This document shows positions 4,394-35,643 of a stretch of DNA of 35,643 nucleotides, one piece after another; the stretch's first letter is position 1, and each line of letters opens with the position of its first letter. Position numbers and translations under genes: made by a program. The stretch covers positions 1 to 35,643 of the IMG/VR virus record IMGVR_UViG_3300031867_000270; one strand, 5' to 3'. The notes beneath the pieces are model-generated. The model did not search any database, was not told the origin of the DNA, and saw only the letters and a program-made list of their open reading frames with translations. This DNA is from a virus.

Positions 4394-4482
4394 TTTATGT
4401 TATTCTAAAAATACATACAAAAGACCACGATAGTGGTCGGAAAATATTATTTAATTTGTAAATAATAAAAGGAGGAATAGTA

Positions 4483-5003: not shown

Positions 5004-5020
5004 TATAAAGGAGAAATGAC

Positions 5021-6080: not shown

Positions 6081-6084
6081 GATT

Positions 6085-8166: not shown

Positions 8167-8167
8167 G

Positions 8168-11596: not shown

Positions 11597-11608
11597 GAGG
11601 TGTAATTA

Positions 11609-15002: not shown

Positions 15003-15013
15003 GAGGGGATATT

Positions 15014-17948: not shown

Positions 17949-17975
17949 ATTATCACATTATTATCACACAAGTTT
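17949..17975. repeat. 27-bp direct repeat, copy 2, abutting the integrase stop codon
   Basis: Identical to 17745-17771. Confidence 0.9.
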
Positions 17976-19110: not shown

Positions 19111-19128
19111 AACAACCTCCTATAAAAT

Positions 19129-19154
19129 AAGATAAGTATATTTCAACTTATCTT
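19129..19154 (-). terminator. Hairpin between the repressor gene and int
   Basis: AAGATAAGT-8 nt-ACTTATCTT, overlapping the repressor stop. Confidence 0.4.
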
Positions 19155-19795
19155 TAGTTTATTTCAAATTTTCCTATGTATTTACCTAATATCTTAATAG
19201 GTGTCTTTTTATCATATATTTGCCTTTTAAAACTCTCATCTGTACTCATAGGCTCTAGGAATACGAAATCTCCTTGTTTTGCAAATCTTTTTAATGTAGC
19301 ATCATAACCATTTACTAATACAACGGCTATATCTCCATCATCAACAATATCTTGCTTTCTAATAAGAGCATAAGCACCATTTCTAATTACTTTATTCATT
19401 GATTCGCCGTCTACTTTTAAGAAGAAACACTCTTCTGGATTTATAATTCCCATTAATGCAGGGTCAATAGGCAAGTATCCATTTAAACATTCTTCTGCCC
19501 AGTTAGGTTGCCCTGCTGATATTTTGCCGTATACAGGTGTCATAAATAACTTATTTGAAATGTTTTCATTCTTGTTATCTTTATCCTCAACTAAATCACT
19601 TTTTAATATATTAAAATAATTTGCTAATAATTCTATCTTATCTATTCTAGGATAATATAATGCATTACACCAACTTGAAACAGTAGAATAAGGTACATTT
19701 GTAATTTTAGCTATATCATTTCTAGTTTTGTTGTATTTTTCCATATAGTATTTTAAATTTTTAGAGAAAATTTCTTTATTTCCTAAATCACTCAT
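19154..19795 (-). CDS. CI-like repressor (XRE HTH plus LexA/S24 autopeptidase domain)
   Basis: ATG 19795 after GGAGGA. HTH: RNDIAKITNVPYSTVSSWCN. Ala-Gly site in KISAGQP. DGESM ... LKRF gives the Ser/Lys dyad. Confidence 0.88.
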   Translation of the reverse strand: MSDLGNKEIFSKNLKYYMEKYNKTRNDIAKITNVPYSTVSSWCNALYYPRIDKIELLANYFNILKSDLVEDKDNKNENISNKLFMTPVYGKISAGQPNWAEECLNGYLPIDPALMGIINPEECFFLKVDGESMNKVIRNGAYALIRKQDIVDDGDIAVVLVNGYDATLKRFAKQGDFVFLEPMSTDESFKRQIYDKKTPIKILGKYIGKFEIN

Positions 19796-19887
19796 TTTAT
19801 AAATCCTCCATGCACTAATATTAACACATTTTTTTAAAAAATGCAAAAAAAATTATAGAAAAACTAAAATTTTTTTGAAAAAAGTAT

Positions 19888-19915
19888 TGACATTATAGTT
19901 TAACTATAATATAAT
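19888..19915 (+). promoter_or_regulatory. Early rightward promoter with a 19-bp palindromic operator
   Basis: TTGACA 19888-19893, TATAAT 19910-19915. The palindrome ATTATAGTTTAACTATAAT at 19892-19910 fills the spacer. Confidence 0.7.
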
Positions 19916-20279: not shown

Positions 20280-20531
20280 ATGAATAGCAACGAAGAGTGG
20301 ATAAGCCTTAATGAATTTATGAGAAGAAGAAAAATAGGATACAACGTAGCAATGCAGATGATAACAAATAATGAAGTTGAGTATCAAAAGACAGATGGAG
20401 GCAGATACAAAATAAAAGTTGGTGGAGATTCAGTTAGCACTGAACTTTACAATAAATTACTAGAAAGAGCAACAAAGGCAGAAACAAAGTTAAAAATTCT
20501 AGAAGATATTATTTTAGAAGGGAGGAACTAA
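20280..20531 (+). CDS. Excisionase-family/MerR-like HTH protein (possible Xis)
   Basis: RBS AAGGAGGTGG. ISLNEFMRRRKIGYNVAMQMITNNEVEYQKTDGGRYKI resembles excisionase-type winged HTH. Confidence 0.45.
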   Translation: MNSNEEWISLNEFMRRRKIGYNVAMQMITNNEVEYQKTDGGRYKIKVGGDSVSTELYNKLLERATKAETKLKILEDIILEGRN

Positions 20532-20533
20532 AG

Positions 20534-20662
20534 ATGAGTAAAAGAGAAAAAGCAATATACAAAATAGCAGTAAAAGATACATTAGTAGTATCAAGTGGAA
20601 TAGTAACAGCAATAGCATTTGGCATGGCATTTATGATTAAAGCTGGAATATTTGTATTTTAA
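20534..20662 (+). CDS. Small membrane peptide (42 aa)
   Basis: ATG after GGGAGGAA; the C-terminal half is hydrophobic (VVSSGIVTAIAFGMAFMIKAGIFVF). Confidence 0.4.
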   Translation: MSKREKAIYKIAVKDTLVVSSGIVTAIAFGMAFMIKAGIFVF

Positions 20663-20675
20663 GGAGGACAAGCAC

Positions 20676-20894
20676 ATGAAAATTGAAGGCAGTGTTCAAG
20701 AAATAAAAGAATTATTTAAAAATTTTGAAATTAAAAAGACACCAGTTGCTGGAACAACTGATGTAATAAAGCTTGATGGTAAAAATATTTCAAACCAAAT
20801 GTTAAAAAAATCAATGTTATATCTTTACAAAGCATTAAAAGAAGAAGGCTTACAAAACACTGATGAATTTATTAATTTTTGGGAGAAATATTAA
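20676..20894 (+). CDS. Hypothetical protein (72 aa)
   Basis: ATG 20676 after AAGGAGGA (the track ORF opens upstream with TTG). Confidence 0.5.
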   Translation: MKIEGSVQEIKELFKNFEIKKTPVAGTTDVIKLDGKNISNQMLKKSMLYLYKALKEEGLQNTDEFINFWEKY

Positions 20895-21111
20895 AGTTAT
20901 CAAGTAACCAATTATGATAATCATGTAAGTTTTTAACAAATAATTTATTTGCACAAGATAATGATTTTTCATACAACTTATAATCTCGATTAGAAGGTTC
21001 AAAAGTAAAAAAATCCGAATTATACCAAGAGGAAATTTCTTTAGATGATTCTTTTATAACTAAATTGAGATTCTCTTCACAGTGTTGTGCAAAATTAGAA
21101 AAATCAGTCAT
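20872..21111 (-). CDS. Hypothetical protein (79 aa) antisense to the early operon
   Basis: ATG 21111 after GGAGGTG. Has its own extended -10 (TGtTATAAT on the minus strand, about 21135-21143). Its 3' end overlaps the convergent gene by 23 bp. Confidence 0.55.
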   Translation of the reverse strand: MTDFSNFAQHCEENLNLVIKESSKEISSWYNSDFFTFEPSNRDYKLYEKSLSCANKLFVKNLHDYHNWLLDNFNISPKN

Positions 21112-21163
21112 TAATATCACCTCCAATCGAGGTAATTATAACAAAAGAAAGGAGAAAAAGAAA

Positions 21164-21394
21164 ATGTTAGAAAAATTTCAATCAATGTTAAGAACATTAA
21201 AAAAGAAAGATACAAAAATGAAAATGTCATTAAATTCAGTACAAGCATTATTTAATATGCTAGACATGTGTAAAGAATTAAAGATGCACGCAATAACACC
21301 AACACAAGTAGAAAATATGCAAAGTGCAGAAATGCATATCAATTACATAATAAAAAAACTATATGTTCCTGACTACCAATCTGAAAACATATAG
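21164..21394 (+). CDS. Hypothetical protein (76 aa)
   Basis: ATG 21164 after AAAGGAGAA. Confidence 0.5.
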   Translation: MLEKFQSMLRTLKKKDTKMKMSLNSVQALFNMLDMCKELKMHAITPTQVENMQSAEMHINYIIKKLYVPDYQSENI

Positions 21395-21469
21395 TTCTAA
21401 AAAACATTTATATAAACATTCTCTTTAATTATATTAACACATTTTTAAAGAGAAATCAAGGAGGAAATT

Positions 21470-21691
21470 ATGGACGATTATGATAGACAAGGAGAATTGC
21501 AAGATTTAGTAGATGGATTAGATTCATTAATAGATAATTTAGATTCATACAAAACAGACTTTGAGGACGATTTACGAGAAACAATGATGAAAGCTCAAGG
21601 AATGTTAGACGAAGTAAATTACATAATATCACAAATGGAAGCTAAAGAAATGAGAGAACAAGAAAGAGAATATTGGGAAGGAGTAATTTAG
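21470..21691 (+). CDS. Small, highly acidic protein (73 aa)
   Basis: RBS AAGGAGGA. 22 Asp/Glu against 7 Lys/Arg by hand count. Directly upstream of the annealing-protein gene. Confidence 0.6.
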   Translation: MDDYDRQGELQDLVDGLDSLIDNLDSYKTDFEDDLRETMMKAQGMLDEVNYIISQMEAKEMREQEREYWEGVI

Positions 21692-22255
21692 ATGGAAATA
21701 ACATTTGAAGATATAAAAAAAGCAAATGAAAGTATATCAACAACAGATATTAAAGGAAAGGAATATGCAGAAGTTAATCAAAGAATAAAAGCTTTTAGAA
21801 TGGTTTATCCAATGGGAAGTATAGAAACAGAGTTGTTAAGTAATGAAAATGGAATATGCATATTTCAAGCAACAGTATCAGATAAAGAAGGAAATATATT
21901 AGGTATGGGAACAGCCTACGAAAAAGAAGGAAGTTCATTTATAAATAAAACAAGTTACATAGAGAATTGTGAAACATCAGCGATAGGAAGAGCATTAGGA
22001 ATGGCAGGATTTGGAATAGACACATCAATAGCAAGTGCAGAAGAAGTATCAAATGCAATTACACAACAAGATGATCTAAAACCAATAACAAAAACAAATT
22101 TAAATGTATTACAAGGATTAATAAAAGAATTATCAGAAGCTAAAGCATTTTATGAAAATATTTTAAAAAAATATAACATCACAGATTTGTCGCAATTAAC
22201 ATCAAAACAATATGGGGAGATATTAACAGAAATAAAGAAAATGAAAGGCGAATAA
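21692..22255 (+). CDS. Single-strand annealing protein (Rad52/Sak-like)
   Basis: The motif SYIENCETSAIGRALGMAGFGIDTSIASAEEV resembles Rad52-type phage recombinases; position in the recombination module. Confidence 0.5.
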   Translation: MEITFEDIKKANESISTTDIKGKEYAEVNQRIKAFRMVYPMGSIETELLSNENGICIFQATVSDKEGNILGMGTAYEKEGSSFINKTSYIENCETSAIGRALGMAGFGIDTSIASAEEVSNAITQQDDLKPITKTNLNVLQGLIKELSEAKAFYENILKKYNITDLSQLTSKQYGEILTEIKKMKGE

Positions 22256-22258
22256 CAA

Positions 22259-22591
22259 ATGGATTTATATGAACAAATAACAAAGTTTATTAACGAATTA
22301 GACATATCTGTTAGACAATTAAGAAAAAGCGGTTCAGATTTAGCTGAGGCAGAGCAGAAATACAAGATATGTTTAAGAGAAGAAGCATTGAAATTAAGAG
22401 CAGAAAAAAATATGCCAGTAACATTAATAAATCAAATTATATACGGAGTACCAGAAGTTGCAAAATTAAGATTTGATAGAGATGTAAAAGAGGCAGTATA
22501 CCAAGCAAATTTAGAAGCAATAAATAGTACAAAATTAAAGTTAAGGATATTAGAAAACCAATTAAATAGAGAATGGGGACAAGCCAAATGA
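22259..22591 (+). CDS. Hypothetical coiled-coil protein
   Basis: 110 aa, tightly packed after the annealing protein. Confidence 0.5.
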   Translation: MDLYEQITKFINELDISVRQLRKSGSDLAEAEQKYKICLREEALKLRAEKNMPVTLINQIIYGVPEVAKLRFDRDVKEAVYQANLEAINSTKLKLRILENQLNREWGQAK

Positions 22592-22869
22592 AATCAATAT
22601 TACAAGATAAAAAAGAAAGTTACATCAGTGGAGCGACTTATGGTTTAGAAGAACATCATATTTACTTTGGTTCAGGGAAAAGAAAAATATCAGAGCAAAA
22701 TGGATTCAAAGTATGGATAACATATGAAGAACATCGTGGTACATATGGTGTTCATGGAAAGAATGGACACAAATTAGATTTAAAACTTAAACAAGAGTGT
22801 CAAAAAGAATATGAAAAGACACATACAAGACAAGAATTTATAAATTTAATAGGAAAAAGTTACTTATAA
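22588..22869 (+). CDS. Hypothetical His-rich protein (possible nuclease-like)
   Basis: ATGA overlap with the previous stop supports ATG 22588. The motifs LEEHHIYFG..., EEHRGTYGVHGKNGH are conserved in many Firmicute phages. Confidence 0.45.
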   Translation: MKSILQDKKESYISGATYGLEEHHIYFGSGKRKISEQNGFKVWITYEEHRGTYGVHGKNGHKLDLKLKQECQKEYEKTHTRQEFINLIGKSYL

Positions 22870-22887
22870 ACAAAAGGAGAATCAGAA

Positions 22888-23622
22888 ATGAATTTTATAA
22901 AACAATTTAATACATTTTTTGAGAATTTACTAACAGAACCTTTAAGTTCTAATGCTGTTTATTTATATTTTACATTATTTTATATAAATAACAAATGTAA
23001 TTGGAAAAAAGAGTTTACTGTGGCAAATTCAACAATTATGGGATTAACAAGTTTTGATAAAAATAAACTGGTTAGAGCTAGAAACGAACTAAAGCAGAAA
23101 GGTTACATTAATTATAAAAATGGAAAGAATCAAATTCAATCAGGGACATATGAAATACTAGATTTTGATACGGCACTTGATACGGCGTATGATACACCGA
23201 ACGATACGGCAGATGATACGGCGGACGATACGGCAGTCGATACCAATAATAAACAAAACAAAACTAAACAAAAAAAGAAAAATATTAAAAAGAAATTTTT
23301 TGGTGAGTATCAAAATGTATTTTTTACTGACGAACAATATCAAAAACTTTTGGCTGAATTTCCTAGCGACTACAAACAACGAATACAAAAGTTAGATGAT
23401 TATATGCAATCGAAAGGCATTAAGTACAAAGACTGCTTAGCAACTATACGAAATTGGGCTAGAAAAGATGGATATGTAAAACTAACTAAGCCAAAAGAAG
23501 AGTATGTTGGAGATTATGTTGAAATAGATTATAGCCAATTAACAAACGAAGAATACGAAATGCTCATGAAAAAGAAAATAACTATTCAAGAGCTAATCGA
23601 GAAAGGAAAAATAAATGTATGA
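22888..23622 (+). CDS. Replisome organiser / replication initiator (phage_rep_org/DnaD-like)
   Basis: N-terminal LSSNAVYLYFTLFY...LVRARNELKQKGYI winged-helix pattern. C-terminal ...DCLATIRNWARKDGY. Sits upstream of the helicase. Confidence 0.7.
   Translation: MNFIKQFNTFFENLLTEPLSSNAVYLYFTLFYINNKCNWKKEFTVANSTIMGLTSFDKNKLVRARNELKQKGYINYKNGKNQIQSGTYEILDFDTALDTAYDTPNDTADDTADDTAVDTNNKQNKTKQKKKNIKKKFFGEYQNVFFTDEQYQKLLAEFPSDYKQRIQKLDDYMQSKGIKYKDCLATIRNWARKDGYVKLTKPKEEYVGDYVEIDYSQLTNEEYEMLMKKKITIQELIEKGKINV
23167..23250. repeat. Seven tandem 12-bp iterons (GATACGGCnnnn) inside the organiser gene, followed by an A/T-rich tract: putative origin
   Basis: Units start at 23167, 23179, 23191, 23203, 23215, 23227 and 23239. 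They encode the DT(A/P)xDT.. linker. Confidence 0.7.
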
Positions 23623-24850
23623 TGAAGAAATTGAAAAAGCAATGTTGTACTACATTATTTTCCAAAATGAAGAGTATTTGTTAGATGAAGAAGATTTTTC
23701 AGACAGTAGAAATAAAAAGTTGATAAAAGCTATAAACAATCTAAAAGCAAAAAAACAAGAAGTAAATATGCTAAGTGTAAAGGCAGAACTGGGGAAAGTA
23801 CAAGGAGATGTTCTAAGATATTTATCAACACTAGGAGAATACAGTTATGGAACAACAGCTGAAACACTTTACCGAAAGATTTTAGAGATGTCTAAAAAAA
23901 GAAAAATAATTAAACTTTTGCAAGATTCAATTTCAGAGGTAGAAGAAGTTGAGGATATAGATATTTTTGGAGAAAAGATAATAAAAGACATTAACAAAAT
24001 CAAGAGTAGAGATGAAAAAGAAAGAACCTTTGTTGAACAAGTTGTAGAAGCAGTTGAAACAATTGAGAAGAACACTTTATCAAAAACAGATTATTCTTTA
24101 TACACTGGAATTATGGATTTAGACAACATTACTTGCGGGTTGCACAACGAAGAATTAACAATCATAGGAGCTAGACCAGGGGTAGGAAAGACAACACTTG
24201 CATTGCAAATAGCAGAAAACATAGCTTCAAAAGGTGTTGAAACGGCAATAGTAAGTTTAGAGATGTCAGAGTATCAGATTATTCAAAAGTTAATAGCTAA
24301 ACGAACTAGGATAAATTCCTACAAAATGAGAATGGGAACGCTAGAAACAAATGACTTAGGAGAAGTAGGAAAAGCTGGAGCGGAAGTATCAACATTGCCA
24401 ATTCACTTAATAACAAATGCAAAGACATTGCAACACATAGAAAATATAGCTCGTAAATTAAAGAATAAAAGCAAATTGGGGCTTATGATAATAGATTACA
24501 TACAACTGATAAAAAATCAAGGGAGATTTAATTCTCGTGAGCAAGAAGTAGCAGATATAACAAGAACATTGAAGTTATTAAGTTTAGAATTAAAGATACC
24601 AATAGTAGGGTTATGTCAGCTAAACAGAAATGCAACAAAATCAGAGCCAATGTTAGCTGATTTAAGAGAAAGTGGAGCAATAGAACAAGATGCAGATAAT
24701 GTAATATTTTTATACCAAGAAAAAGAACAAGAGGGAAATATCGTAGACGTAACATTGAAAGTTGCAAAGCAAAGAGCAGGAGAAATAGGAAAGGTATATT
24801 TGAAATTTAACAAAGGGAATAGTGAATTTAAAGGAGTTATAAGATGCTAG
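23615..24850 (+). CDS. dnaB: Replicative DNA helicase (DnaB family)
   Basis: Walker A GARPGVGKTT, IIDYIQLI, and the LCQLNR / LRESGAIEQDAD motifs. Confidence 0.9.
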   Translation: MYDEEIEKAMLYYIIFQNEEYLLDEEDFSDSRNKKLIKAINNLKAKKQEVNMLSVKAELGKVQGDVLRYLSTLGEYSYGTTAETLYRKILEMSKKRKIIKLLQDSISEVEEVEDIDIFGEKIIKDINKIKSRDEKERTFVEQVVEAVETIEKNTLSKTDYSLYTGIMDLDNITCGLHNEELTIIGARPGVGKTTLALQIAENIASKGVETAIVSLEMSEYQIIQKLIAKRTRINSYKMRMGTLETNDLGEVGKAGAEVSTLPIHLITNAKTLQHIENIARKLKNKSKLGLMIIDYIQLIKNQGRFNSREQEVADITRTLKLLSLELKIPIVGLCQLNRNATKSEPMLADLRESGAIEQDADNVIFLYQEKEQEGNIVDVTLKVAKQRAGEIGKVYLKFNKGNSEFKGVIRC

Positions 24851-24948
24851 AAATAGATAAAAAACAATTATTAAGTTTTGATAATGCAAATAGAGTAAGA
24901 ATACTAAAGTACATAGCTTTAGGATTAATTAAATATAAAGGAGAGTGA
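24844..24948 (+). CDS. Possible small ORF (34 aa)
   Basis: ATG overlaps the helicase stop and fills the gap to the next gene; no clear RBS. Confidence 0.25.
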   Translation: MLEIDKKQLLSFDNANRVRILKYIALGLIKYKGE

Positions 24949-24954
24949 GTACAA

Positions 24955-25263
24955 ATGAGTTTGTTAACGATAAAAACAAGAAGAGAAAGTAATGAAAAGA
25001 CAAATAAAGATAGACCCATATTATATACAAGAGTACTAGCAATATTAAGTACAGGTTTAACACTAACAGCAAATGAAATAGCAAAAAGAATAAATAAGAA
25101 TTGGAAAAGACAAGACATACAGCCAAGGCTTAATGAATTAAGAGATAAATACAACTTAATAGAGGAAAATGGAAAGAAATATGACAATGAAACTAATAGG
25201 AATGTAACAGCATATAGATTAATCAAAGAAAATGAAGTAAAGGAGGGAGCAAATGAAATATAA
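24955..25263 (+). CDS. Hypothetical winged-helix-like protein
   Basis: RBS AAAGGAGAG. ILSTGLTLTANEIAKRIN...IQPRLNELRDK is HTH-like. Confidence 0.5.
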   Translation: MSLLTIKTRRESNEKTNKDRPILYTRVLAILSTGLTLTANEIAKRINKNWKRQDIQPRLNELRDKYNLIEENGKKYDNETNRNVTAYRLIKENEVKEGANEI

Positions 25264-25381
25264 AGACTTAAAAGAGCCTTGCAAAAGTTGCCTTCGGATG
25301 CATCCGACTTTGAAAATCCTAACTTCGAAGGAGATAAAAAATGTAAATGGCAACCAAAAGAAGAAGGCATTGAACAAATAA
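25253..25381 (+). CDS. Possible small ORF (42 aa)
   Basis: ATG 25253 after AAGGAGGGAG; overlaps the previous stop. Confidence 0.35.
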   Translation: MKYKDLKEPCKSCLRMHPTLKILTSKEIKNVNGNQKKKALNK

Positions 25382-25403
25382 AACTAAATTTAGGAGATAA
25401 AAG

Positions 25404-25784
25404 ATGAAATATAGTTTTGAAATAAATAGACGATTACCAAGTTTTAATGAATATACAAAAGCTTGTAGAAGTAATAAATATGCAGGAGCAGAAATGAAAA
25501 AGCAAATAGAACTTGAAATATGGGCATACATAACAAACAAGTTAAAAGGAGTAAAGATAGACAAGCCAATATTTATAACATTTACGTGGGTAGAAGAAAA
25601 CAAAAAACGAGATCTCGATAATATCTGTTTCGCCAAGAAATTTATATTAGATGCACTACAAAAGGCAGGAGTAATAGAAAACGATAATAGTAAACATGTT
25701 ACGGGATTTACAGATAAATTTGAATATGCGGATAGAAGTAAAGTAATAGTTGAATTGGAGGAAATACCAGATGAACAGAAGTAA
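25404..25784 (+). CDS. rusA: RusA-family Holliday junction resolvase
   Basis: SFNEYTKACRSNKYAGAEMKK...KKRDLDNICFAKKFILDALQKAGVIENDN matches the RusA signature. Confidence 0.85.
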   Translation: MKYSFEINRRLPSFNEYTKACRSNKYAGAEMKKQIELEIWAYITNKLKGVKIDKPIFITFTWVEENKKRDLDNICFAKKFILDALQKAGVIENDNSKHVTGFTDKFEYADRSKVIVELEEIPDEQK

Positions 25785-25935
25785 TGCAAAAATAATCATA
25801 ATACTAGAAACAATCCTAATGCTAATAATGTCAATAAGTTTAGGTTATGCAATAGGACAAACAAAACGAGAAGTATACCAAAAAGAAAATGAATTACAGG
25901 AGTTAAAAAAAGGAATTGAGCAGATTAAAAAATAA
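25771..25935 (+). CDS. Small membrane protein (54 aa)
   Basis: ATG 25771 after GGAGGAA; TM segment IIIILETILMLIMSISLGYAI. Confidence 0.5.
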   Translation: MNRSNAKIIIILETILMLIMSISLGYAIGQTKREVYQKENELQELKKGIEQIKK

Positions 25936-25969
25936 CGATGAATATTTAATATCAAGGGAGGATAGAAAT

Positions 25970-26335
25970 ATGGCATTTGATTTAAACGACGAAGAATTAA
26001 AAGCAACAAGAGAAATGAATAAAACAGCATGGGAAAGTGAAATAGATAAATGGAGTAAAGAATATCTAATAGAAAGATATAAAGATTTAGTTGAAATAGA
26101 AAAAGAACATAAAAAAGAAAATGGAGAATTGAGGGAAAAGGTAAAAGAATTAGAAAACGCAGATTTAACAACAGTATATATGAATGGCTTTTATGATGGA
26201 GAAAAGAAGTGGAAAGATAAAATAAAAGAAAAAATAGAATTTTATAAAAGATATGGGAAAATTAAAAATTCTAATGAGTATGTAATGAGTGTAGAAATAG
26301 AAGTTTTAGAAGAACTATTAGAAGAAAGGAATTAA
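25970..26335 (+). CDS. Hypothetical coiled-coil protein
   Basis: ATG 25970 after AGGGAGGA. Confidence 0.5.
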   Translation: MAFDLNDEELKATREMNKTAWESEIDKWSKEYLIERYKDLVEIEKEHKKENGELREKVKELENADLTTVYMNGFYDGEKKWKDKIKEKIEFYKRYGKIKNSNEYVMSVEIEVLEELLEERN

Positions 26336-26341
26336 ATAGAT

Positions 26342-26782
26342 ATGAATAAAGAAGAAAAGTTTGTTATAAAAACATTAAAAGATAGTCAAAATACATATAT
26401 AGAGAACACAAAAGTTAAAAAAGTAGAATTAAGCACTGATGAAGCAAAAGTAGTTTTAAATCTAATAGAAAAACAACAAAAAGAATTAGAACCAATAAAG
26501 AAATTAAATATTCCAGTAGAAACATTAGTATCAGAATTTAATAGGTTAGAAGGTTTAGAAGATAACACAGAAATGTTAAAAAGTGAATTAGAAAAGAAAG
26601 ATAAGATAATAGATAAAATGGCAGAACTAATATACAAAAAAATAGATATGCTAGAGATGGGAGATATGGCAAAAGAAATAAATTATAGTTTGGAAGAATT
26701 ATATTCTGGGATAGAAGATGAGGAAGCAATAAAAATCATTAAAAACAGCTTTACAAATCTAGTAGAAAAGGAGAGTAAATAA
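26342..26782 (+). CDS. Hypothetical protein
   Basis: 146 aa ORF in the early-operon orientation. Confidence 0.5.
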   Translation: MNKEEKFVIKTLKDSQNTYIENTKVKKVELSTDEAKVVLNLIEKQQKELEPIKKLNIPVETLVSEFNRLEGLEDNTEMLKSELEKKDKIIDKMAELIYKKIDMLEMGDMAKEINYSLEELYSGIEDEEAIKIIKNSFTNLVEKESK

Positions 26783-26783
26783 T

Positions 26784-26879
26784 ATGTATATATTAGATAT
26801 AGGTTTATCAATACTTATGGGAAGTATAGGAATAGCAATAATAGTAGCAGTATATATGAGTTTTAAAGATAAGGAGTAA
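26784..26879 (+). CDS. Mini membrane peptide (31 aa)
   Basis: ATG 26784 after AAGGAGAG; the sequence YILDIGLSILMGSIGIAIIVAVYM. Confidence 0.35.
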   Translation: MYILDIGLSILMGSIGIAIIVAVYMSFKDKE

Positions 26880-26883
26880 TTAT

Positions 26884-27222
26884 ATGGAATTACCAGTAAT
26901 ATATGAAGACTTTAACCCAAGTATAGAGGTTAAAGGAATGATAATTATATTTAAAGAAAAGGAGTTGGGCATGAGAATAGAAACAAAATACAATATAGAA
27001 GATAGAGTATGGGTAGTATATGAGTGTCAAAAAGAAGTAAGTGTATATGATACTGTAATAGAAGAAGTTTGTTACAACGGGATAGAATCATATTATTTTG
27101 GAAAAGAAGGAGTAGATATATACGAGAAAAATATGGTTGCTTATGATGATAAAAAAGGACTAGCTGAATTAATAGAAAGAATAATGAATGAAATACATAC
27201 AAGAGAGGAGTTAGAGAGATGA
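26884..27222 (+). CDS. Hypothetical protein
   Basis: ORF with AAGGAG upstream; an internal ATG (MRIETKY) with its own RBS is an alternative start. Confidence 0.5.
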   Translation: MELPVIYEDFNPSIEVKGMIIIFKEKELGMRIETKYNIEDRVWVVYECQKEVSVYDTVIEEVCYNGIESYYFGKEGVDIYEKNMVAYDDKKGLAELIERIMNEIHTREELER

Positions 27223-27473
27223 CAGCAGATGAAATGTTTGAAGAATTAGGATTTGATTACTTTGATAATTATAATCACGATTATATATACGGTGGAAGAC
27301 TTCTAAAAAGAGAAAAGTATAAAGAACAGTTAGAACAAAGAATTGTAATTGACTGTGATACTCAAACTGTCGAAATAGACCATGGAACACCTGATATATT
27401 TCCTATAATAAATAAAAAAATAGATGAATTAGGAATGAAAGAAATTAGAAAAGAAGAAAATGAAAGGAGCTGA
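27219..27473 (+). CDS. Hypothetical protein
   Basis: ATGA start-stop overlap with the previous gene. Confidence 0.5.
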   Translation: MTADEMFEELGFDYFDNYNHDYIYGGRLLKREKYKEQLEQRIVIDCDTQTVEIDHGTPDIFPIINKKIDELGMKEIRKEENERS

Positions 27474-27481
27474 AAGGTTAG

Positions 27482-27850
27482 ATGAATAAAACAATAAAAG
27501 TAATAGATTTATTAAATAAAATAGCTAATGGAGAAGAAGTACCAAAACATATTATTGTTAATATAAATGATGAATATTTTTTAAACAAAGATGCATCGAG
27601 TATAGAAGAATTATATAGAACTGATGCAGGAACAAATTGGACAAGCTATGCTGATGTACAATTAGGCTATTTTGTTGAAATAATAGAAGATAAAGAAGAT
27701 ATAAACATACAAGATATAGAAGAGATGCCTGAATATATACATATAGGAGATGGAAGAGCAGATACAGATGTAAAAGATGAAGTGAATATAAAAATAAATG
27801 AAATAATAAGAGCAGTTAAGCAATTAGATAAAACAAAGGAGGATAAATAA
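27482..27850 (+). CDS. Hypothetical protein
   Basis: 122 aa ORF, packed in the operon. Confidence 0.5.
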   Translation: MNKTIKVIDLLNKIANGEEVPKHIIVNINDEYFLNKDASSIEELYRTDAGTNWTSYADVQLGYFVEIIEDKEDINIQDIEEMPEYIHIGDGRADTDVKDEVNIKINEIIRAVKQLDKTKEDK

Positions 27851-27949
27851 ATGGGAAACTTTATACTAGGATTTATGATAGGAGGCTTTTTAAGTTTATT
27901 AGTATTATCTTTGGTTATAACAGGGAAAGAAAGTGAGGAGGATAAATAA
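27851..27949 (+). CDS. Mini membrane peptide (32 aa)
   Basis: ATG directly after the previous stop, with AAGGAGGA upstream; the sequence GNFILGFMIGGFLSLLVLSLVI. Confidence 0.35.
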   Translation: MGNFILGFMIGGFLSLLVLSLVITGKESEEDK

Positions 27950-27950
27950 A

Positions 27951-28268
27951 ATGAATTTAGAAAGAATTAAAAAAGATATTGACCATCAAACAAGGAATGG
28001 AAGAAAAAATATATACATAAAAGTAGATGACTTAAATGAGTTAGTACAAGGGGCTAAACAAGAAGTCAGAGGAGAAGAAAGAATTTATATAGGTATAGAG
28101 GCAATGAAGAAAATAGTAGAAGCTTATGAAAATAACAGAACTCAAGAAGAAAAAGAAAAGGACGAGTTCTTCAAAAGAATACATGTAGATATGCCAAAGC
28201 ATGAATTAATACCAATAAGTGAAAATGGAGCTTTATTTCATCCATTAAAAGAAGATAGAGAAAGGTAG
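27951..28268 (+). CDS. Hypothetical protein
   Basis: ATG 27951 after GAGGAGGA (the track ORF opens with GTG 27933). Confidence 0.5.
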   Translation: MNLERIKKDIDHQTRNGRKNIYIKVDDLNELVQGAKQEVRGEERIYIGIEAMKKIVEAYENNRTQEEKEKDEFFKRIHVDMPKHELIPISENGALFHPLKEDRER

Positions 28269-28275
28269 TGATAAT

Positions 28276-28464
28276 ATGCCTCTAATAGACAGAAGAGAAA
28301 AATTAGAAAAAGCATTATCAGAATGGATAAAAATGACAGAAGATGTAGAAATTCAAGTTAACAATGTAATTGATGGAAAGAAACATAAAAAAGAATTAAA
28401 TGCATTAATGAGTAATTGCAAACTTAAATTTAGAAGGCTAGAAGATGTTTTGAAAATTTACTAG
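28276..28464 (+). CDS. Hypothetical protein
   Basis: 62 aa ORF in the operon. Confidence 0.45.
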   Translation: MPLIDRREKLEKALSEWIKMTEDVEIQVNNVIDGKKHKKELNALMSNCKLKFRRLEDVLKIY

Positions 28465-28475
28465 GAGGAATACAA

Positions 28476-28661
28476 ATGAAGATATATGGAATATATGATC
28501 TAATTCAAAATGAATTATGTTTAAGAATAGGGACTTTAAATGAAGTAGTAAGATTTTTAGATTTTACACCAAGAGAAATAGGGAGAGCAATAAAAACTAA
28601 CAGTACAGTAAGAAACAGGTATAAAGTATATTATTTGTTTGAGGAGGTACAAAAGAGTTGA
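28476..28661 (+). CDS. Hypothetical protein
   Basis: RBS AGGAGGAA; 61 aa. Confidence 0.45.
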   Translation: MKIYGIYDLIQNELCLRIGTLNEVVRFLDFTPREIGRAIKTNSTVRNRYKVYYLFEEVQKS

Positions 28662-29209
28662 GATATATAAAAGAAGAATTAGAAGGTTTATTAAGAAAAC
28701 ACAAAGAACATGAAGCTCAATTGACAGAATTAGAGTTGAAATTAGAAGAATACAAAGAGCGATTAGAATATGCAGGTACAGTTTATCAAGATACAGAAGA
28801 AGAAACGATAGAAAACTTACAATTACACGGAAAAGGTTTCGATGAAGTATCGAGTAATACCAACAAAGTATCGGATAAAGTATCAAGTACAGCAATGATA
28901 TATAAAAGAGAAATGAACCATATAAACAATGAAGATAGAACACATCTTGAAAGTAAAATAAGAGAGTTTGAAAAAGAAAAAGATACATTAAATAAAAAAG
29001 TTGTTAGAGTAAAGAACTTATTAGACAGAGTAACAATAGATGAACGATATGTAATTAATTTATTTTATTTAGAAGAATCTAAATGGGATTACATAGAAAA
29101 GAAGTATTTTGAAGAATTTGAAAGACATAAGTCAATAAAACAGCTACAAACATACAGAGACAACGCATTAGATAAAATGCTAAACATAATTAATATTGGT
29201 TTACAATAA
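28658..29209 (+). CDS. Late-gene transcriptional activator (ArpU/RinA-like, sigma-70 region-4-like C-terminus)
   Basis: C-terminal DERYVINLFYLEESKWDYIEKKY...SIKQLQTYRDNALDKML resembles sigma region 4. Last early gene before the packaging module. TTG start. Confidence 0.55.
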   Translation: MRYIKEELEGLLRKHKEHEAQLTELELKLEEYKERLEYAGTVYQDTEEETIENLQLHGKGFDEVSSNTNKVSDKVSSTAMIYKREMNHINNEDRTHLESKIREFEKEKDTLNKKVVRVKNLLDRVTIDERYVINLFYLEESKWDYIEKKYFEEFERHKSIKQLQTYRDNALDKMLNIINIGLQ

Positions 29210-29214
29210 AACTT

Positions 29215-29278
29215 CGCGAAAACTTCGCAAAAATTACGCGAAAACTTCCTTTAAATTTCATTTTGAAGGTAGTATAAT
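29215..29278 (+). promoter_or_regulatory. Candidate late promoter: two 12-bp direct repeats CGCGAAAACTTC, then TATAAT
   Basis: Repeats at 29215-29226 and 29237-29248 (22-bp period). TATAAT at 29273-29278 with no good -35, so likely activator-dependent. Confidence 0.5.
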
Positions 29279-29824
29279 TATAATAGAAAAATTATAAAAA
29301 GTCGCAGATGTAGAGAATACATTTCATAGACCGAGCGACACATCTTTCTAATTAAAATGGTAAAGAAGAGCTGATGTTTTAAATGTTGGCTCTTTTATTA
29401 TGCTTATTACAACTGATACTAGGTAAAGTTGATAATAATAAATAGTGATTCATATGGATTACTCCTTTTTATCGTTGTATTTTAAGTATTTTTTTGCGAG
29501 GAACATCACCTCCTTTCGAAGAATTATAGAGAAATGGAAGACATAGAACTTTCCTAGTGAGTTCTAATATATTTTGTATACAGCAATATAACATAGGAAC
29601 TGCAGAGAGGCGAAAGTAGTAATATTAAATTAATATGTTTAGGTTTTAACGCAGGTGATACTACGGTTTTATGGGCAACTATTAAAGAACTTAGCCCCAA
29701 GGTAGAGCATAGCTACCATATATTACGAAGGTATAAGCCTCTTTATACTAGTTTGCGATGTCTTATAACTATATTGTTGTATAGAGACTATATAGAGTTA
29801 TATATTAAAACAAAGGAAAAGCCT
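29279..29824 (+). other. Long non-coding, hairpin-rich region (late-operon leader or candidate structured RNA)
   Basis: No ORF of 60 aa or more on either strand. Several stem-loops. Local G+C is about 39% at 29641-29760 by hand count, in an AT-rich genome. Confidence 0.5.
29379..29453 (-). CDS. Possible 24-aa peptide (MNHYLLLSTLPSISCNKHNKRANI)
   Basis: ATG 29453 lies 8 nt after AAGGAG on the minus strand and ends inside the 29366-29396 hairpin; otherwise unsupported. Confidence 0.25.
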   Translation of the reverse strand: MNHYLLLSTLPSISCNKHNKRANI

Positions 29825-29980
29825 ATGAATATAAAAGAATACCAAGAAAGAATATGTAAATATTGTATAGTAGAAAACTGTACACAGAAAATAGAGGAAA
29901 CAAAATTAGATGATGTACTGTGTATGAAATGTTTAGAATATAACAAAGGAGAAAGCCATGAGAAAAAGTTATACAGCTGA
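29825..29980 (+). CDS. Small Cys-rich (CxxC...CxxC) protein, 51 aa
   Basis: ATG 29825 (the track ORF opens upstream with TTG). ICKYCIVENC...CMKC suggests a zinc ribbon. Confidence 0.45.
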   Translation: MNIKEYQERICKYCIVENCTQKIEETKLDDVLCMKCLEYNKGESHEKKLYS

Positions 29981-30643: not shown

Positions 30644-31066
30644 ATGGCGAAGATAGATGATAGAAAGAAAAAAGAAATAATTGCATACTATGCAGAATCT
30701 CAAAATTATAGAGAAACAGCAAGAAGATTTAGTATTTCCCCCAATACGGTTAAAAGTTTAGTAAATAAAAATGAACAAATTGCACAAATCTGCACACAAA
30801 AAAGTATAGAAAATACAAAATCAGTTTTGCAAGAAATGGAAGAAAGAAAACAAACCAAAATAAAGTTACTAGATAAAATATTAGAAGCAATGGATAAAAA
30901 ATTAGACGATATTGATATGTTTACAAATATAAAAGATTTAGCTACTGCATATGGAATAATTATGGACAAGGAAATAAAACTTAAAGAAATAGATAACAAA
31001 AACAAAGACAGTCAAGATGTGCTGGATAGGTTAGATAAGTTATTAGAGGAGCAGAGAAATGCTTAA
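30644..31066 (+). CDS. terS: Terminase small subunit
   Basis: 140 aa with an N-terminal HTH (YRETARRFSISPNTVKSLV); overlaps the terL start. Confidence 0.7.
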   Translation: MAKIDDRKKKEIIAYYAESQNYRETARRFSISPNTVKSLVNKNEQIAQICTQKSIENTKSVLQEMEERKQTKIKLLDKILEAMDKKLDDIDMFTNIKDLATAYGIIMDKEIKLKEIDNKNKDSQDVLDRLDKLLEEQRNA

Positions 31067-32357
31067 ATGGACTGATAAACAAAGGGAATATTTGCAAAAA
31101 GCCACGCATAGATGGAACTTTAAAATTGGAGCGGTAAGAAGTGGAAAAACATTTCAAGATAAAGAAGATATTATAGCAAGAAGAATAAGACAAAGAAAAG
31201 GATTAGATGGTTTAGTAGTGCTTATTGGGGTAACAGAGGCGACAATTGAGAGAAATGTTTTAAGACCTATGCGAGATAAATTTGGTTCAGAGTTGGTTGG
31301 GAATATATCAAAAAATAAAGTTTGGCTATTTGGAGAAGAATGCTATGCTTTAGGAGCAGAGAAAATAACACAAGTCTCCAAAATACAAGGAGCTAGCTTT
31401 AAATATGTATATGGTGATGAAGTAGCGAAATGGAAAAAGGAAGTATTTGATATGGTAAAATCAAGGCTAGACCAAGATTATAGCTTGTTTGATGGAACTT
31501 GTAACCCAGAACAAAAAAATCATTGGTTAAAAGAGTTTTTAGATAGCGATGCAGATATATATATACAACATTACACAATAGATGATAATACATTTTTAAG
31601 TAAAACATTTATAGAAAATTTAAAAAAAGAATATAAAGGAACAGTACTTTATAATAGATACATATTAGGATTATGGTGTAATGCAGAAGGACTTATATAT
31701 AGAACATTTGCCGATAATCCTAAAAAATACATATGGACTAAAAAGAAAAAAGACAATAATGGAAATGAAACAGAAAAATATGATTTACCACCAGGGTATA
31801 CAATAATAGGAATTGATTATGGAGGCACAAAATCGGGGCAAGCATTTGTAGCTACAAGAATAAGCTATGATTTTACAAAGGTAATAGCTTTAGCAACCGA
31901 AAGACACTTTGGAGATATAGACCCAGATAAGTTAGAAGAATTGGAATTGAATTTCATATTAAAAGTAATGTATAAATATGACTTAACAGTTGATGATATA
32001 TTCCCAGATAATGAGGAAACAGTTCTAATAAGAGGACTAAGAAATGCATGTGAAAGAAAAGGAATATATGCTACAGTAAGAGGTAGTAAAAAAGTTCCTG
32101 TAAATAATAGAATAGATTGTGAACGTACCATAATTGCTTATGGTATTTTTTATTACATAAAAGAGGAATGTGAAACATTAGTTGAAGCACTAGAAAGTGC
32201 TTTATGGAGTGATAAACCAGGAAAAGACAATAAAGATGAAAGACTAGACGACTTTACAACGGATATAGATTCATTAGATGCATTTGAATACACATTCGAA
32301 AGATATATACCACAAATAACAGATGTTGTAGAAATGAGGAGAAAAAATAATGTTTGA
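31059..32357 (+). CDS. terL: Terminase large subunit (PBSX/Terminase_3-like)
   Basis: Walker A GAVRSGKT, Walker B-like YVYGDE, C-terminal nuclease region; 432 aa. Confidence 0.9.
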   Translation: MLKWTDKQREYLQKATHRWNFKIGAVRSGKTFQDKEDIIARRIRQRKGLDGLVVLIGVTEATIERNVLRPMRDKFGSELVGNISKNKVWLFGEECYALGAEKITQVSKIQGASFKYVYGDEVAKWKKEVFDMVKSRLDQDYSLFDGTCNPEQKNHWLKEFLDSDADIYIQHYTIDDNTFLSKTFIENLKKEYKGTVLYNRYILGLWCNAEGLIYRTFADNPKKYIWTKKKKDNNGNETEKYDLPPGYTIIGIDYGGTKSGQAFVATRISYDFTKVIALATERHFGDIDPDKLEELELNFILKVMYKYDLTVDDIFPDNEETVLIRGLRNACERKGIYATVRGSKKVPVNNRIDCERTIIAYGIFYYIKEECETLVEALESALWSDKPGKDNKDERLDDFTTDIDSLDAFEYTFERYIPQITDVVEMRRKNNV

Positions 32358-33750: not shown

Positions 33751-35409
33751 ATGATTGAGGATAAAATACAAAGTGCAATAAAACCTATTATATCAATGTA
33801 TAGTCAGATAGAATTAGATATAATAGAAAAAATTGCAGAACATTTTAAAGTAAATGAGGAATTTATCAATTCAGACTATTGGTACTTTGAAAAACTAAAA
33901 GAATTAGGTGGACTTAATAATGAAACTATAAAATTATTAGAAGAAAGAACAGGATATACAAAGAAAGAATTATTGAAAGCGATGAAAGATATAGGAATCA
34001 ATTCTATACCAACAGAGCAATTAAATATAGCAACACAAAAAGGAGCTTTGTTAAATCCAGAAAAAATAATAAATAGTGTTAATATACAAAATATAATTAA
34101 ATACAGTTATGATGAAATAGAAAAAGAGTTTTTACAATTTAATAAGACTATAGAAGAACAAGTAAGAAAAACTTATACTGCTATAGCTACACAAACATAC
34201 ATAAAAGTAAATAGTGGAATGTATAGCTATCAAGAGGCTATCTTAGAGAGTTTAGATGAATTAGGGAATAAAGGAATATCAGTATTAGAATATCAAACAA
34301 ATACAGGTAAAAGAAATTATGATGTAGTAGGAACAGTAAGAAGGGATTTACTTATAGCAACAAGAGGACTAGCAGGAAAAGTAAATGAAGAAGTAATAAA
34401 AGAAAGTGGTTGGCATATAGTAAGAGTTTCGCATCACTTTGGAGCAAGAACAGGAGATAGAGGAGAAAACTTTACTAATCATGCATGGTGGCAAGAAAAA
34501 CAATATTTCTGTTGGAACTATGATGGATTAGCTACCAAAGAAGAAAAGAAATTACCTGATTTTATGGAACATTGTAATTACGGAGATGTTCAAGGAATAG
34601 TTGGAATTAACTGTAAACACTTCTTTACTGTTTGGTATGGTTCATTAGAAAAAGATAAATTAGATTTTACATATAATGAAAATAAAGAACAATATGAAAA
34701 TACACAGCAACAAAGATATTTAGAGAATGGTGTTAGAAAATGGAAAAGAAAGCAAGTTGCAGCAAAAGCATCAGAAGACAAAGGAGGCTATAATAAAGCA
34801 AGTAAGAAAGCTAAAGAATGGCAAGATAGATTAAATATATTTACAGAAGAAAAGAGTTTAAATAGAGATTATACTAGAGAACATATAAAAGATTACAAAA
34901 ATGTAACAGATAATGATACAAAGTATACAGATATAACTTACAAGACACTAAAAAATGGAAAACAAGAGTATAAATTAACAGAACAACAGTATTTTATAGA
35001 TAAAAGTGGTGTGAAGCATAATATAGATGGAAGGAATGTAAAAATAAAAGCAAACGAAAAAGAAAGACAAGTTGCTAATTTAATGGGAAAAACTTATGGA
35101 GGGGAAATAAAATTAATTCCAGTAGTCTTGAACCCTCAAGGAATAAAAACACCAGATTATATGGTAAATGATAAAAAATTTGACTTGAAAGAAATATTTG
35201 GAAATACTAAAAATACTTTGTATAATGCCATCAATAAAAAGAAAGAACAATCTTCAAATTTTATTTTTGATATATCTAGCACAAAAATGAAAACAATAGA
35301 TGCTATTAAGCAAATACAAGGAATTTATAAATCAAAACATAAAGATTGGATAAATGAAATAGTTTTAATTAAAGATAATAAAGTATTAAAAATTTATAAA
35401 AGAAAATAA
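33751..35409 (+). CDS. Head morphogenesis / minor capsid protein (SPP1 gp7 / MuF-like) with C-terminal PD-(D/E)xK toxin-like extension
   Basis: Position after the portal gene. The core has ...GARTGDRGENFTNHAWWQ...GINCKHFF. The extra roughly 130 aa C-terminal domain has E...KTPDY-x7-DLKE. Confidence 0.7.
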   Translation: MIEDKIQSAIKPIISMYSQIELDIIEKIAEHFKVNEEFINSDYWYFEKLKELGGLNNETIKLLEERTGYTKKELLKAMKDIGINSIPTEQLNIATQKGALLNPEKIINSVNIQNIIKYSYDEIEKEFLQFNKTIEEQVRKTYTAIATQTYIKVNSGMYSYQEAILESLDELGNKGISVLEYQTNTGKRNYDVVGTVRRDLLIATRGLAGKVNEEVIKESGWHIVRVSHHFGARTGDRGENFTNHAWWQEKQYFCWNYDGLATKEEKKLPDFMEHCNYGDVQGIVGINCKHFFTVWYGSLEKDKLDFTYNENKEQYENTQQQRYLENGVRKWKRKQVAAKASEDKGGYNKASKKAKEWQDRLNIFTEEKSLNRDYTREHIKDYKNVTDNDTKYTDITYKTLKNGKQEYKLTEQQYFIDKSGVKHNIDGRNVKIKANEKERQVANLMGKTYGGEIKLIPVVLNPQGIKTPDYMVNDKKFDLKEIFGNTKNTLYNAINKKKEQSSNFIFDISSTKMKTIDAIKQIQGIYKSKHKDWINEIVLIKDNKVLKIYKRK

Positions 35410-35516
35410 AAAAAAATGAGGTTGGTGCAACACATGGGTGTCACATAACCTCTAATAAATATTTATTAACTTAATTATACACTATATTAAGTTAATAATC
35501 AATAGTTTATGCAAAA

Positions 35517-35643
35517 AAATATAAATTATTCATACTGTCCGAAATGACGATAAACTACTAATTAAATAGTTAAATCATAGGCGTAGAAATACGTCTATTT
35601 TTTATGCAAATTGCCCTTTCGTGGCTGGGCTTTAAATGGCACG
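35517..35643. repeat. Second copy of the 127-bp terminal repeat
   Basis: Identical to 1..127. Confidence 0.95.

Follow-up and report, generated by a model that had tools for sequence, protein, structure and literature searches.

What is the role of a gap of about 615 bp that lies between the gene of a late regulator and the first late gene of a temperate phage? The question is raised by positions 29210-29824 of the virus genome IMGVR_UViG_3300031867_000270 (IMG/VR), whose 35,643 nucleotides are called the window here. The gap holds the longest run of the window without an open reading frame (ORF) of at least 60 aa on either strand (29210-29752, 543 bp; the runner-up has 234 bp), as the first-pass annotation of the sequence had stated. 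Inspection of 29210-29824 revealed no plausible ORF. The plus strand of the gap is more stable than dinucleotide shuffles (z = –2.98; 1 of 100 shuffles was equally good), and the minus strand gives z = –1.68. Three readings had been offered: a large structured non-coding RNA (ncRNA), a late-operon leader with terminators, and a packaging region. The second is best supported, since a promoter with a proximal terminator is the near-universal core of the locus (47 of 50 loci). The gap is probably the control region and the transcribed 5′ leader of the late operon, composed of separable modules. This judgement is about the composite anatomy of the leader, and the function of the specific RNA modules is weighed separately below.

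About 60 related metagenomic loci carrying the regulator or a conserved hairpin were compared with the window and are cited by number (L013 and so on) where needed. They were gathered by exact-protein look-ups, a regulator-alignment scan of viral contigs and DNA-pattern scans. The regulator alignment and an 18-20-mer of the hairpin succeeded where the single regulator protein, used as a query against viral and genome collections, gave no match. By blastn, only the regulator, the repeats behind it, the promoter and the first ~35 nt of the transcript are common to all relatives; conservation of the regulator, the repeats and the tandem –10 is 75-93% throughout. Behind the promoter, the recurring parts are short islands only, and what stands between them differs from locus to locus. 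The conserved modules are 35-210 nt long and are separated by variable DNA, genes and tRNAs. In the alignment of homologues, the 615 bp are not conserved as one unit, and covariation appears in the loops of two hairpins, HpA and HpB, and in a long helix, E3.

The regulator protein matches phrog_36 ('transcriptional regulator') with E = 3e-6 and has 591 homologues. It has no match in Pfam and NCBIfam, including RinA, ArpU, Sigma70_r4, DUF1492 and LtrC. Its AlphaFold2 model (predicted local distance difference test score 80.8) consists of a long coiled coil and a C-terminal three-helix domain. The C-terminal ~65 aa superpose on sigma-70 region 4 domains with a root-mean-square deviation of 1.4-2.8 Å, at weak Foldseek E-values (0.2-4). 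On this modelled fold, the protein is a candidate Ltr-type late activator. The four direct repeats of 11 bp behind the gene are helically phased and have no further copy in the genome. Three or four such repeats (AAAACTTCGCn) stand at the regulator stop codon in all examined relatives carrying the regulator. They are probable recognition sites of the activator, by analogy with the Ltr recognition repeats, which they resemble in location and form (PMC3753634). The TATAAT at 29273-29278, which had been named as a promoter, belongs to a promoter-like TTTAAA-17-TATAAT arrangement (29250-29278). The tandem hexamer TATAATTATAAT occurs in all examined relatives with the regulator and is intact in 48 of 50 loci, the exceptions being a 5-nt deletion in the first hexamer (L046) and a diverged second hexamer (L052). 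A TGn extended –10 precedes the first hexamer in many relatives, and the –35 is poor.

The predicted intrinsic terminator T1 lies ~110 nt downstream of the –10 in the window, where a hairpin and T-run at 29366-29396 had been noticed; a terminator-like hairpin was indeed found at 29364-29396. Of 50 loci, 47 have such a hairpin behind the tandem –10, usually at a distance of 33-118 nt. The T1-type hairpins of these loci have covarying stems with at least 12 different sequences, and the U-rich tail is conserved. In the 2 kb around the gap, 3 terminator-like sites of hairpin and T-run are present against 0.3 expected. An optional stem precedes T1. The first-pass annotation had described a pseudoknot-like order for it (GTCGC/AGATGT...GCGAC/ACATCT), but the relatives keep a nested arrangement in which the stem GUCGC/GCGAC encloses the hairpin AGAUGUA/UACAUUU. 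Besides the window, only L013, L014/16, L045/46 and L084 have this leader stem, and inspection by eye shows covariation in its two helices (UGCCAC/GUGGCA with AGGUA/UACCU, the nested stem of L014, and AGAUACA/UGUAUCU). The leader stem and the stem of HpA stood outside the formal covariation scoring. An antiterminator pairing of ACAUC with GAUGU of T1 was ruled out because it is absent in L014.

Downstream of T1, HpA and HpB form the first RNA element. The loop of HpA contains a box, ATACTAGGTAA (29416-29426), that is present as a single copy in the genome. The stem of HpA varies in sequence yet pairs in the relatives (cagu/acug, uauuaacu/aguuaaua, uauuaauu/aauuaaua, aucaau/auugau, and uauuagca/uguuaaua with G.U). 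A promoter role of the box was ruled out, as it sits in the loop of a hairpin with a covarying stem and no usable –35 is conserved. HpB had been noticed as TAGAACT...AGTTCTA (29544-29566) with a possible role as a terminator. The hairpin itself is widely conserved: an exact 18-20-mer of it is present in 7 viral and 8 metagenome contigs, and its stem covaries (AGAAC/GUUCU, AAGGC/GCCUU, AGAC/GUCU, CAGAAUA/UAUUCUG). The terminator role was ruled out, as a U-tract rarely follows and none is conserved. HpB is instead a predicted recognition hairpin.

HpB lies 40-133 nt downstream of the HpA box across the relatives, and the two loops are complementary. Their alleles change in step (ACUAGG/CCUAGU, GCUAGG/CCUAGC, ACUAGA/UCUAGU and GCUAGA/UCUAGC), with G.U intermediates and three exceptions in the set. 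The loop-loop helix of seven pairs is 95.1% paired over 41 distinct sequences. At pair 21-59, 25 of them have AU, 13 have GC, 2 have GU and one is unpaired; at pair 26-54, 31 have GC and 10 have AU, with none unpaired. The covariation score of the loop-loop helix was reached by 0 of 500 shuffles, and slid registers are 33-53% paired. The loops were also complementary in three out-of-sample loci obtained afterwards. The alignment was assembled by hand with the spacer removed, and the hairpin pairs were curated manually after noisy automated pairing. A second complementary target for either loop was sought across the genome and none was found; both partners are always in cis. The comparison establishes a predicted contact between HpA and HpB in the plus-strand RNA, either a kissing loop or a pseudoknot. 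Rarity of CTAG as a signal was ruled out, as 76 copies were observed and 83 expected, which is no depletion. The linker between the hairpins holds a CU-rich stretch identical to the 3′ end of 16S rRNA, that is, like an anti-Shine-Dalgarno (SD) sequence. A CUCCUUU-like stretch stands 15-45 nt upstream of HpB in most relatives. Its pairing with the downstream SD was ruled out, since the complementarity is inconsistent across loci, and the minus-strand ORFs behind the SD that is complementary to this stretch are not conserved in the relatives.

The second RNA element, E3, is a long bulged helix between HpB and the first late gene that is common to 12 distinct sequences. In nine compact versions, 97.5% of the cells of its 41-pair structure are paired, and the internal-loop sequence AGUUCUAGAG is invariant. 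Both sides are changed in 12 of the 41 pairs. No shuffle of 500 matched this result, and slid registers gave 31-50%. A covariance model, R1, was built from nine relatives with the window excluded. It finds the window at 29576-29784 on the plus strand with 31.8 bits (a rough E of ~3e-5), the next best score being 17.4 bits, and it also matches L013, L082, L037, L087, L065 and L079. In the relatives, R1 scores 117-137 bits on the plus strand versus 27-30 bits on the minus strand, and many G.U pairs of E3 are valid on the plus strand only. The R1 alignment places a 122-nt insertion of the window in the apical loop. This insert caused misalignment by MAFFT, which was therefore replaced by the covariance model for the E3 of the window.

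The apical insert is not present in L013 or L022. It is 89% identical to a module of L056, L057 and L060, where it alone fills an E3-like helix; therefore, E3 is best described as a conserved closing helix with swappable interiors. Two small hairpins of the module show compensatory changes in L056, L057 and L060. The GGTAG-7-CTACC stem of the first-pass annotation is supported by a compensatory change in L056 (GGGAG/CUCCU). A further stem proposed there, GTATAA-6-TTATAC, clashes with the conserved P2 pairing of GCCUCUU in E3. The GC enrichment noticed earlier is real, with a G+C peak of 0.383 in 29640-29759 against 0.284 window-wide. However, it is modest, as the TerL gene attains 0.35-0.37, and it is mainly due to the 122-nt insert, whose own fold stability is not unusual (z = +0.4 against shuffles).

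The optional nature of the modules is evident from the relatives. HpA and HpB are both absent in L088 and L090-94, HpB is absent in L086 and L089 (HpA only), and E3 is absent in L014, L024 and L028. At the junction after T1, unrelated genes begin within ~10 nt of T1 in the relatives without a promoter of their own; behind each such insert come another T1-like terminator and HpA, in this order. In L013, the closest relative (regulator 96% identical), a 64-aa gene with an Acb2/Tad1 hairpin domain stands directly after T1 (1000-1194) with no visible promoter. Acb2/Tad1 is a sponge family directed against CBASS and Thoeris. The insert of L088 at the same junction is a DUF6731 gene. In L014, the space between T1 and HpA (3760-4260) is occupied by a minus-strand gene for a hydrophobic 59-aa peptide with a ~170-nt 5′ untranslated region and a convergent plus-strand promoter. 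As a separate observation, this insert resembles a type I toxin-antitoxin module, and similar inserts seem to be present in L044, L047, L093 and L094. At the second junction, tRNA genes (e.g. tRNA-Pro UGG) follow HpB directly in many relatives (L013 1337-1567, L039, L044, L046, L049, L067 and others). Sequence comparison marks the junctions after T1 and after HpB as insertion hotspots for morons or tRNAs. The segment 1337-1410 of L013 is tRNA-like yet was not called by ARAGORN. The acceptor stem of the tRNA-Pro (CUAGGUA/UACCUAG) resembles both kissing loops, which is probably a coincidence. A further small element, ACTCATCTACCAAG...GTAGAAGGAGTTTCTGAAG (hairpin CUAC/GUAG followed by an SD-like sequence), was seen after HpB or directly after HpA in L016, L018 (~4060-4110), L086 and L089. 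The positions of all features in the window are collected in Table 1.

Table 1. Features of the gap and of its surroundings, in window coordinates.
Feature	Position	Strand	Description
Late regulator gene	28658-29209	+	183 aa; long coiled coil and C-terminal sigma-70 region-4-like helix-turn-helix
Four direct 11-bp repeats	29208-29251	+	AAAACTTCGCG, AAAACTTCGCA, AAAATTACGCG, AAAACTTCCTT; begin at regulator stop codon
Predicted late promoter	29250-29284	+	weak –35 TTTAAA, 17-nt spacer, tandem TATAAT-TATAAT (29273-29278, 29279-29284)
Leader stem (optional)	29301-29339	+	GUCGC[AGAUGUA-GAGAA-UACAUUU]CAUAGACCGA-GCGAC; inner hairpin, 3′ bulge
T1, predicted intrinsic terminator	29364-29402 (hairpin 29364-29396)	+	15-bp stem, then UUUUAUUAUG
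HpA	29404-29438	+	stem UUAUUA-CAACU / AGUUG-a-UAAUAA; 12-nt loop GAUACUAGGUAA, core UACUAGG 29417-29423
CU-rich stretch	29507-29517	+	CACCUCCUUUC; in HpA-HpB linker
HpB	29544-29566	+	UAGAACU / AGUUCUA around loop UUCCUAGUG, core CCUAGUG 29553-29559
E3, long bulged helix	about 29567-29810	+	ends ~5 nt 5′ of SD of first late gene
E3 outer arms	about 29567-29601 with 29757-29807	+	
E3 inner pairs	29602-29604 with 29754-29756; 29605-29611 with 29737-29743	+	GCA with UGC; P2 GAGAGGC with GCCUCUU
E3 3′ internal loop	29744-29753	+	UAUACUAGUU, 10 nt
Apical insert in E3 P2 loop	29612-29736	+	'GC-enriched' part; portable ~98-nt module 29627-29723
First late ORF	ATG 29825, end 29980	+	SD AAAGGAAAAG from 29813; 51 aa, Cys-rich (CxxC...CxxC)
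Genes after first late ORF	TerS 30644-31066; TerL 31059-32357	+	small ORFs, TerS, TerL, SPP1-type portal
Structural and lysis genes	188-16399		
Integrase and repressor	17974-19846	–	
Early and replication genes	20280-29209		gap follows

The window is the complete, circularly permuted genome (~35.5 kb) of a temperate siphophage with a low GC content (28%). Its ends carry a terminal duplication (1-190 and 35450-35643), in which the hairpin at 61-82 has the same sequence as that at 35577-35598. In an ENA contig carrying the phage, the end of the window continues into its start. The late operon of ~22 kb covers packaging, morphogenesis and lysis, and the hairpin at 35577-35598 is a terminator-like hairpin inside it. 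In most relatives, the first gene after the leader is a small Cys-rich ORF (CxxC...CxxC, zinc-ribbon-like) with no family assignment. The nearest terminase relatives are metagenome-assembled genomes (MAGs) of Clostridia, and blastn and tblastn against GenBank phages and plasmids found nothing resembling the gap or the regulator. The phage is a Clostridia-type temperate siphophage, and its family is known only from gut metagenomes and MAGs. In relatives found through TerL (L005-L012), the terminase genes are held in common and the upstream regions are unrelated; the gap of L012 holds small genes. In L005 (TerL 69% identical), an unrelated ORF-free region of ~600 nt (3800-4470) is highly structured, with a very stable fold (z = –6.1) and no Rfam match. 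It has AGTTCCCACTT twice and a consensus promoter upstream, and at its end a terminator-like hairpin before a Cys-rich ORF and TerS. Independently of the gap, this region is a candidate large structured RNA. Elsewhere in the window, the SPP1 gp7-like minor head protein (Phage_min_cap2, 33751-35409) carries a C-terminal CdiA_C toxin-like domain according to precomputed Pfam results. A perfect TTGACA-17-TATAAT promoter stands at 19887-19915, where the repressor-like gene and the early genes diverge, and probably serves early lytic transcription.

How the composite leader would work can be outlined as follows. The regulator would bind the 11-bp repeats and switch on the promoter, as the RinA, ArpU and LtrA activators do. 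T1 would end an early transcript and attenuate the late transcripts, and productive late transcription would therefore require read-through. This need is indicated by the position of T1 between the promoter and the genes and by the promoterless morons within ~10 nt of T1. The HpA-HpB contact and E3 would act in cis on the read-through transcript. We tentatively prefer the view, by analogy with put, EAR and conAn2, that they help RNA polymerase to ignore the terminators along the operon. Terminator resistance is favoured because the operon is ~22 kb long, T1-like terminators flank the morons, an internal hairpin is present at 35577-35598, and RNA antiterminators are similarly placed elsewhere.

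The activator-promoter part is comparable to known systems. The direct repeats recognised by Ltr activators stand right behind the activator gene itself, and the gap from ltr to terS contains a terminator (PMC3753634). As in the Ltr systems (RinA, ArpU, LtrA/sigma70_r4, LtrB, LtrC; PMC3753634, PMC3152322), the activator is the last gene before the packaging module. Repeats right after the stop codon, a terminator in the activator-terS gap, a sigma region-4-like C-terminus and a single dedicated late promoter are also shared. However, neither Pfam, NCBIfam nor sequence comparison links the regulator of the phage to RinA, ArpU or Sigma70_r4. The repeats are 11 bp here and 7 nt there, and the terminator is located downstream of the promoter. 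Moreover, a structured leader of 540 nt follows, which is undescribed for Ltr systems.

In phage lambda, the regulator gene Q is followed by the promoter pR′ with the regulator sites, a short terminated RNA (6S RNA, ending at tR′) and late genes that rely on read-through. The layout here is alike in that a predicted intrinsic terminator stands no more than ~200 nt behind the promoter, ahead of the late genes. In contrast to lambda, the repeats lie upstream of the –35, as activator sites do, and not between –35 and –10; the second TATAAT directly adjoins the first and does not fall in the initially transcribed region. The Foldseek PDB hits of the regulator are sigma region 4 domains with no Q protein among them, which is a weak negative as the Q families are diverse. 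The leader itself may be likened to put of HK022 (PMC9378689), EAR and conAn2 of pLS20 (PMC8191782), which are structured leader RNAs of long mobile-element operons with poorly conserved sequences; cis action would be a further likeness. conAn2 occupies an intergenic region of 260-600 bp after the gene of a ~170-aa protein, and inverted repeats of ~20 bp flank a centre with a GC-rich patch and stem-loops (PMC8191782). In contrast, neither the regulator nor the four small ORFs contain the ConAn1 domain (PF17362), and no plasmid match was obtained by tblastn. EAR, if included in Rfam 15, gave no match to the gap at E <= 10. Unlike put, EAR and conAn2, the HpA/HpB element and E3 are optional among the relatives.

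Several points weigh against the composite leader or against the role proposed for its RNA elements. We infer the promoter, the transcription start site, termination at T1 and co-transcription of all modules from sequence. HpA/HpB and E3 are not universal among the relatives and are therefore not essential for late transcription. HpA and HpB are located downstream of T1 and thus cannot account for read-through at T1. The inverted repeats that flank conAn2, the nearest analogue, proved dispensable (PMC8191782). As the sequences are related, the shuffle controls for both HpA/HpB and E3 overstate the significance, and the E-values of R1 are rough at an effective sequence number of 1.08. The Foldseek E-values of the regulator are weak. 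Finally, RNase P and RNase Z would excise the tRNA cassettes between HpB and E3, which would suit processing at least as well as antitermination.

The main alternative, which we regard as somewhat less likely, is that HpA/HpB and E3 are signals for RNA processing or stability. E3 would then be either a protective hairpin at a 5′ terminus or an RNase III-type site, whose long helix and asymmetric internal loop would resemble T7 R1.1. Such is the anatomy of RNase III sites in T7, and 5′ hairpins protect transcripts of Firmicutes against RNase J1. A stable 5′ end of the late mRNA would arise just upstream of the SD after cleavage of the upstream tRNA or leader, and the HpA-HpB contact would cap the released fragment. 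The helix of ~40 bp with its conserved 10-nt 3′ internal loop and an end adjoining the SD agrees with this proposal. The tRNA genes between HpB and E3 in many relatives also speak for it, as the transcript must be processed there, and the variable apical inserts are tolerated as expected if the helix alone matters. However, a simple stabiliser needs no conserved loops and no matched kissing loops with four co-varying alleles, and the invariance of the E3 internal loop in the compact versions points to specific recognition.

A discrete small RNA acting in trans, made of HpA, the linker and HpB, is unlikely. The CU-rich stretch or the loops would pair with other RNAs, and the four loop alleles would be specificity determinants as in antisense immunity (P1/P7 c4, P4 CI RNA). 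The CUAG of both loops is of the YUNR type, as is typical in the recognition loops of antisense RNAs. The unit would be 100-170 nt long, bounded by T1 upstream and a tRNA or E3 downstream; the allelic variation with matched partners and the identity of CACCUCCUUUC with the 16S 3′ end also fit. The P4 CI RNA (seqA/seqB/seqC) and P1/P7 c4-ant control immunity or antirepressor genes through a small RNA that is processed out onto its targets. They share with the locus the complementary sequences presented in loops within one leader and their matched variation between related phages. However, the locus has its two partners in hairpin loops of a late-operon leader, separated by 40-133 nt. There is also no separate promoter visible, the 5′ stem of HpA abuts the U-tract of T1, HpB has no U-tract in most loci, and the lack of a second genomic target for loops that always have their partner in cis argues against trans action.

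It is very improbable that the gap encodes a single large ncRNA of the ROOL/GOLLD kind, possibly multimeric via kissing loops. ROOL and GOLLD are phage-encoded single units of 580-800+ nt with conserved multistem junctions and pseudoknots (PMC5737381), and their kissing loops were first inferred from covariation and later proved to be intermolecular (PMC12286853). The phage context and the covariation-supported kissing loops are shared with them; tRNA islands, which often adjoin ROOL and GOLLD (PMC5737381, PMC12286853), are adjacent in many relatives, whereas the window has no tRNA. The palindromic CUAG-core loops could pair between molecules, and the stability of the whole region (z = –3.0) would agree. 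Structured RNA with two covarying elements is thus present, as this reading supposed. However, the covariance-model scan for ROOL, GOLLD and others gave no match. At the gathering score, Rfam detected no family in the window or in 20 relatives except tRNAs. The sensitive scan of 29100-29950 (E <= 10) returned only noise with E > 2. No multistem junctions are conserved across the relatives. The modules are small, separable and optional, not conserved as a unit, and interrupted by genes, tRNAs and an intrinsic terminator.

Still less probable is a function of the inverted repeats as DNA, either as a pac or cos site or as inverted protein sites (ACTAGG...CCTAGT). Sites of the pac or cos type are typically found upstream of terS, and one protein half-site present in two inverted copies could account for the matched changes of box and loop. 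In addition, two Logan contigs of the same phage (SRR9036512) end and start at 29408-29415 with an overlap of only 8 nt, which is the T1/HpA junction. This break coincides with the moron insertion junction, and strain heterogeneity is likely a better explanation than a DNA end. Both boxes lie in the loops of hairpins with covarying stems, where the G.U pairs are valid on the plus strand only, and the two sites are spaced variably, by 40 to 133 nt. The same boxes are found with Terminase_6N, Terminase_2, Terminase_3, TerL_ATPase, T7-like and GP3_package modules, following the regulator and not the terminase type. Because the elements accompany at least 5 terminase families, the packaging region suggested by the first-pass annotation is unlikely.

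The least credible proposal is hidden small genes, e.g. a minus-strand ORF of 24 aa (AAAGGAG-N7-ATG, about 29457-29383) arranged with the plus-strand leader RNA much as in type I toxin-antitoxin systems: the AT skew is negative over 29340-29580, opposite to every plus-strand gene, the SD and ATG are good, the ORF ends inside T1, and L014 has its clear hydrophobic peptide gene at the equivalent place, but neither this ORF nor other SD-linked minus-strand ORFs are conserved in the relatives, the peptide lacks a convincing transmembrane segment, and the conserved features are plus-strand RNA helices. Given the non-conservation, the 24-aa ORF is probably not a gene. No conserved small hydrophobic ORF with an antisense RNA was found, and a type I toxin-antitoxin candidate exists only as the insert of L014.

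Considering all results, the control region itself appears to be of a known kind, and the two covariation-supported RNA elements, HpA/HpB and E3, appear to be new. They are absent from Rfam 15, and no description of them was found in the literature searched. That HpA and HpB constitute a new phage RNA recognition module, with mutually pairing CUAG-centred loops in at least four co-varying alleles, is a speculative proposal that we consider improbable at present. If the contact were intermolecular or selectable between co-resident phages, the leader RNAs might form multimers, as for the kissing loops of ROOL and GOLLD. Alternatively, it might provide allele-specific RNA-RNA control of late genes between related phages, a late-stage heteroimmunity. 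As a further possibility, HpA/HpB together with E3 might represent a fourth type of RNA-only processive antiterminator, next to put, EAR and conAn2. The two precise cargo junctions, with Acb2-like anti-defence genes, toxin-like peptides and tRNAs, are useful for moron annotation and mining. The locus also suggests that a large non-coding gap of a phage may consist of small modules in a row and need not be one giant RNA. Late control in temperate phages of Gram-positive bacteria has so far been viewed mainly as an activator that binds repeats and a promoter that fires. A long structured leader would be added to this scheme here, and it offers testable hypotheses on how terminators are read through along a late operon of ~22 kb in Clostridia phages.

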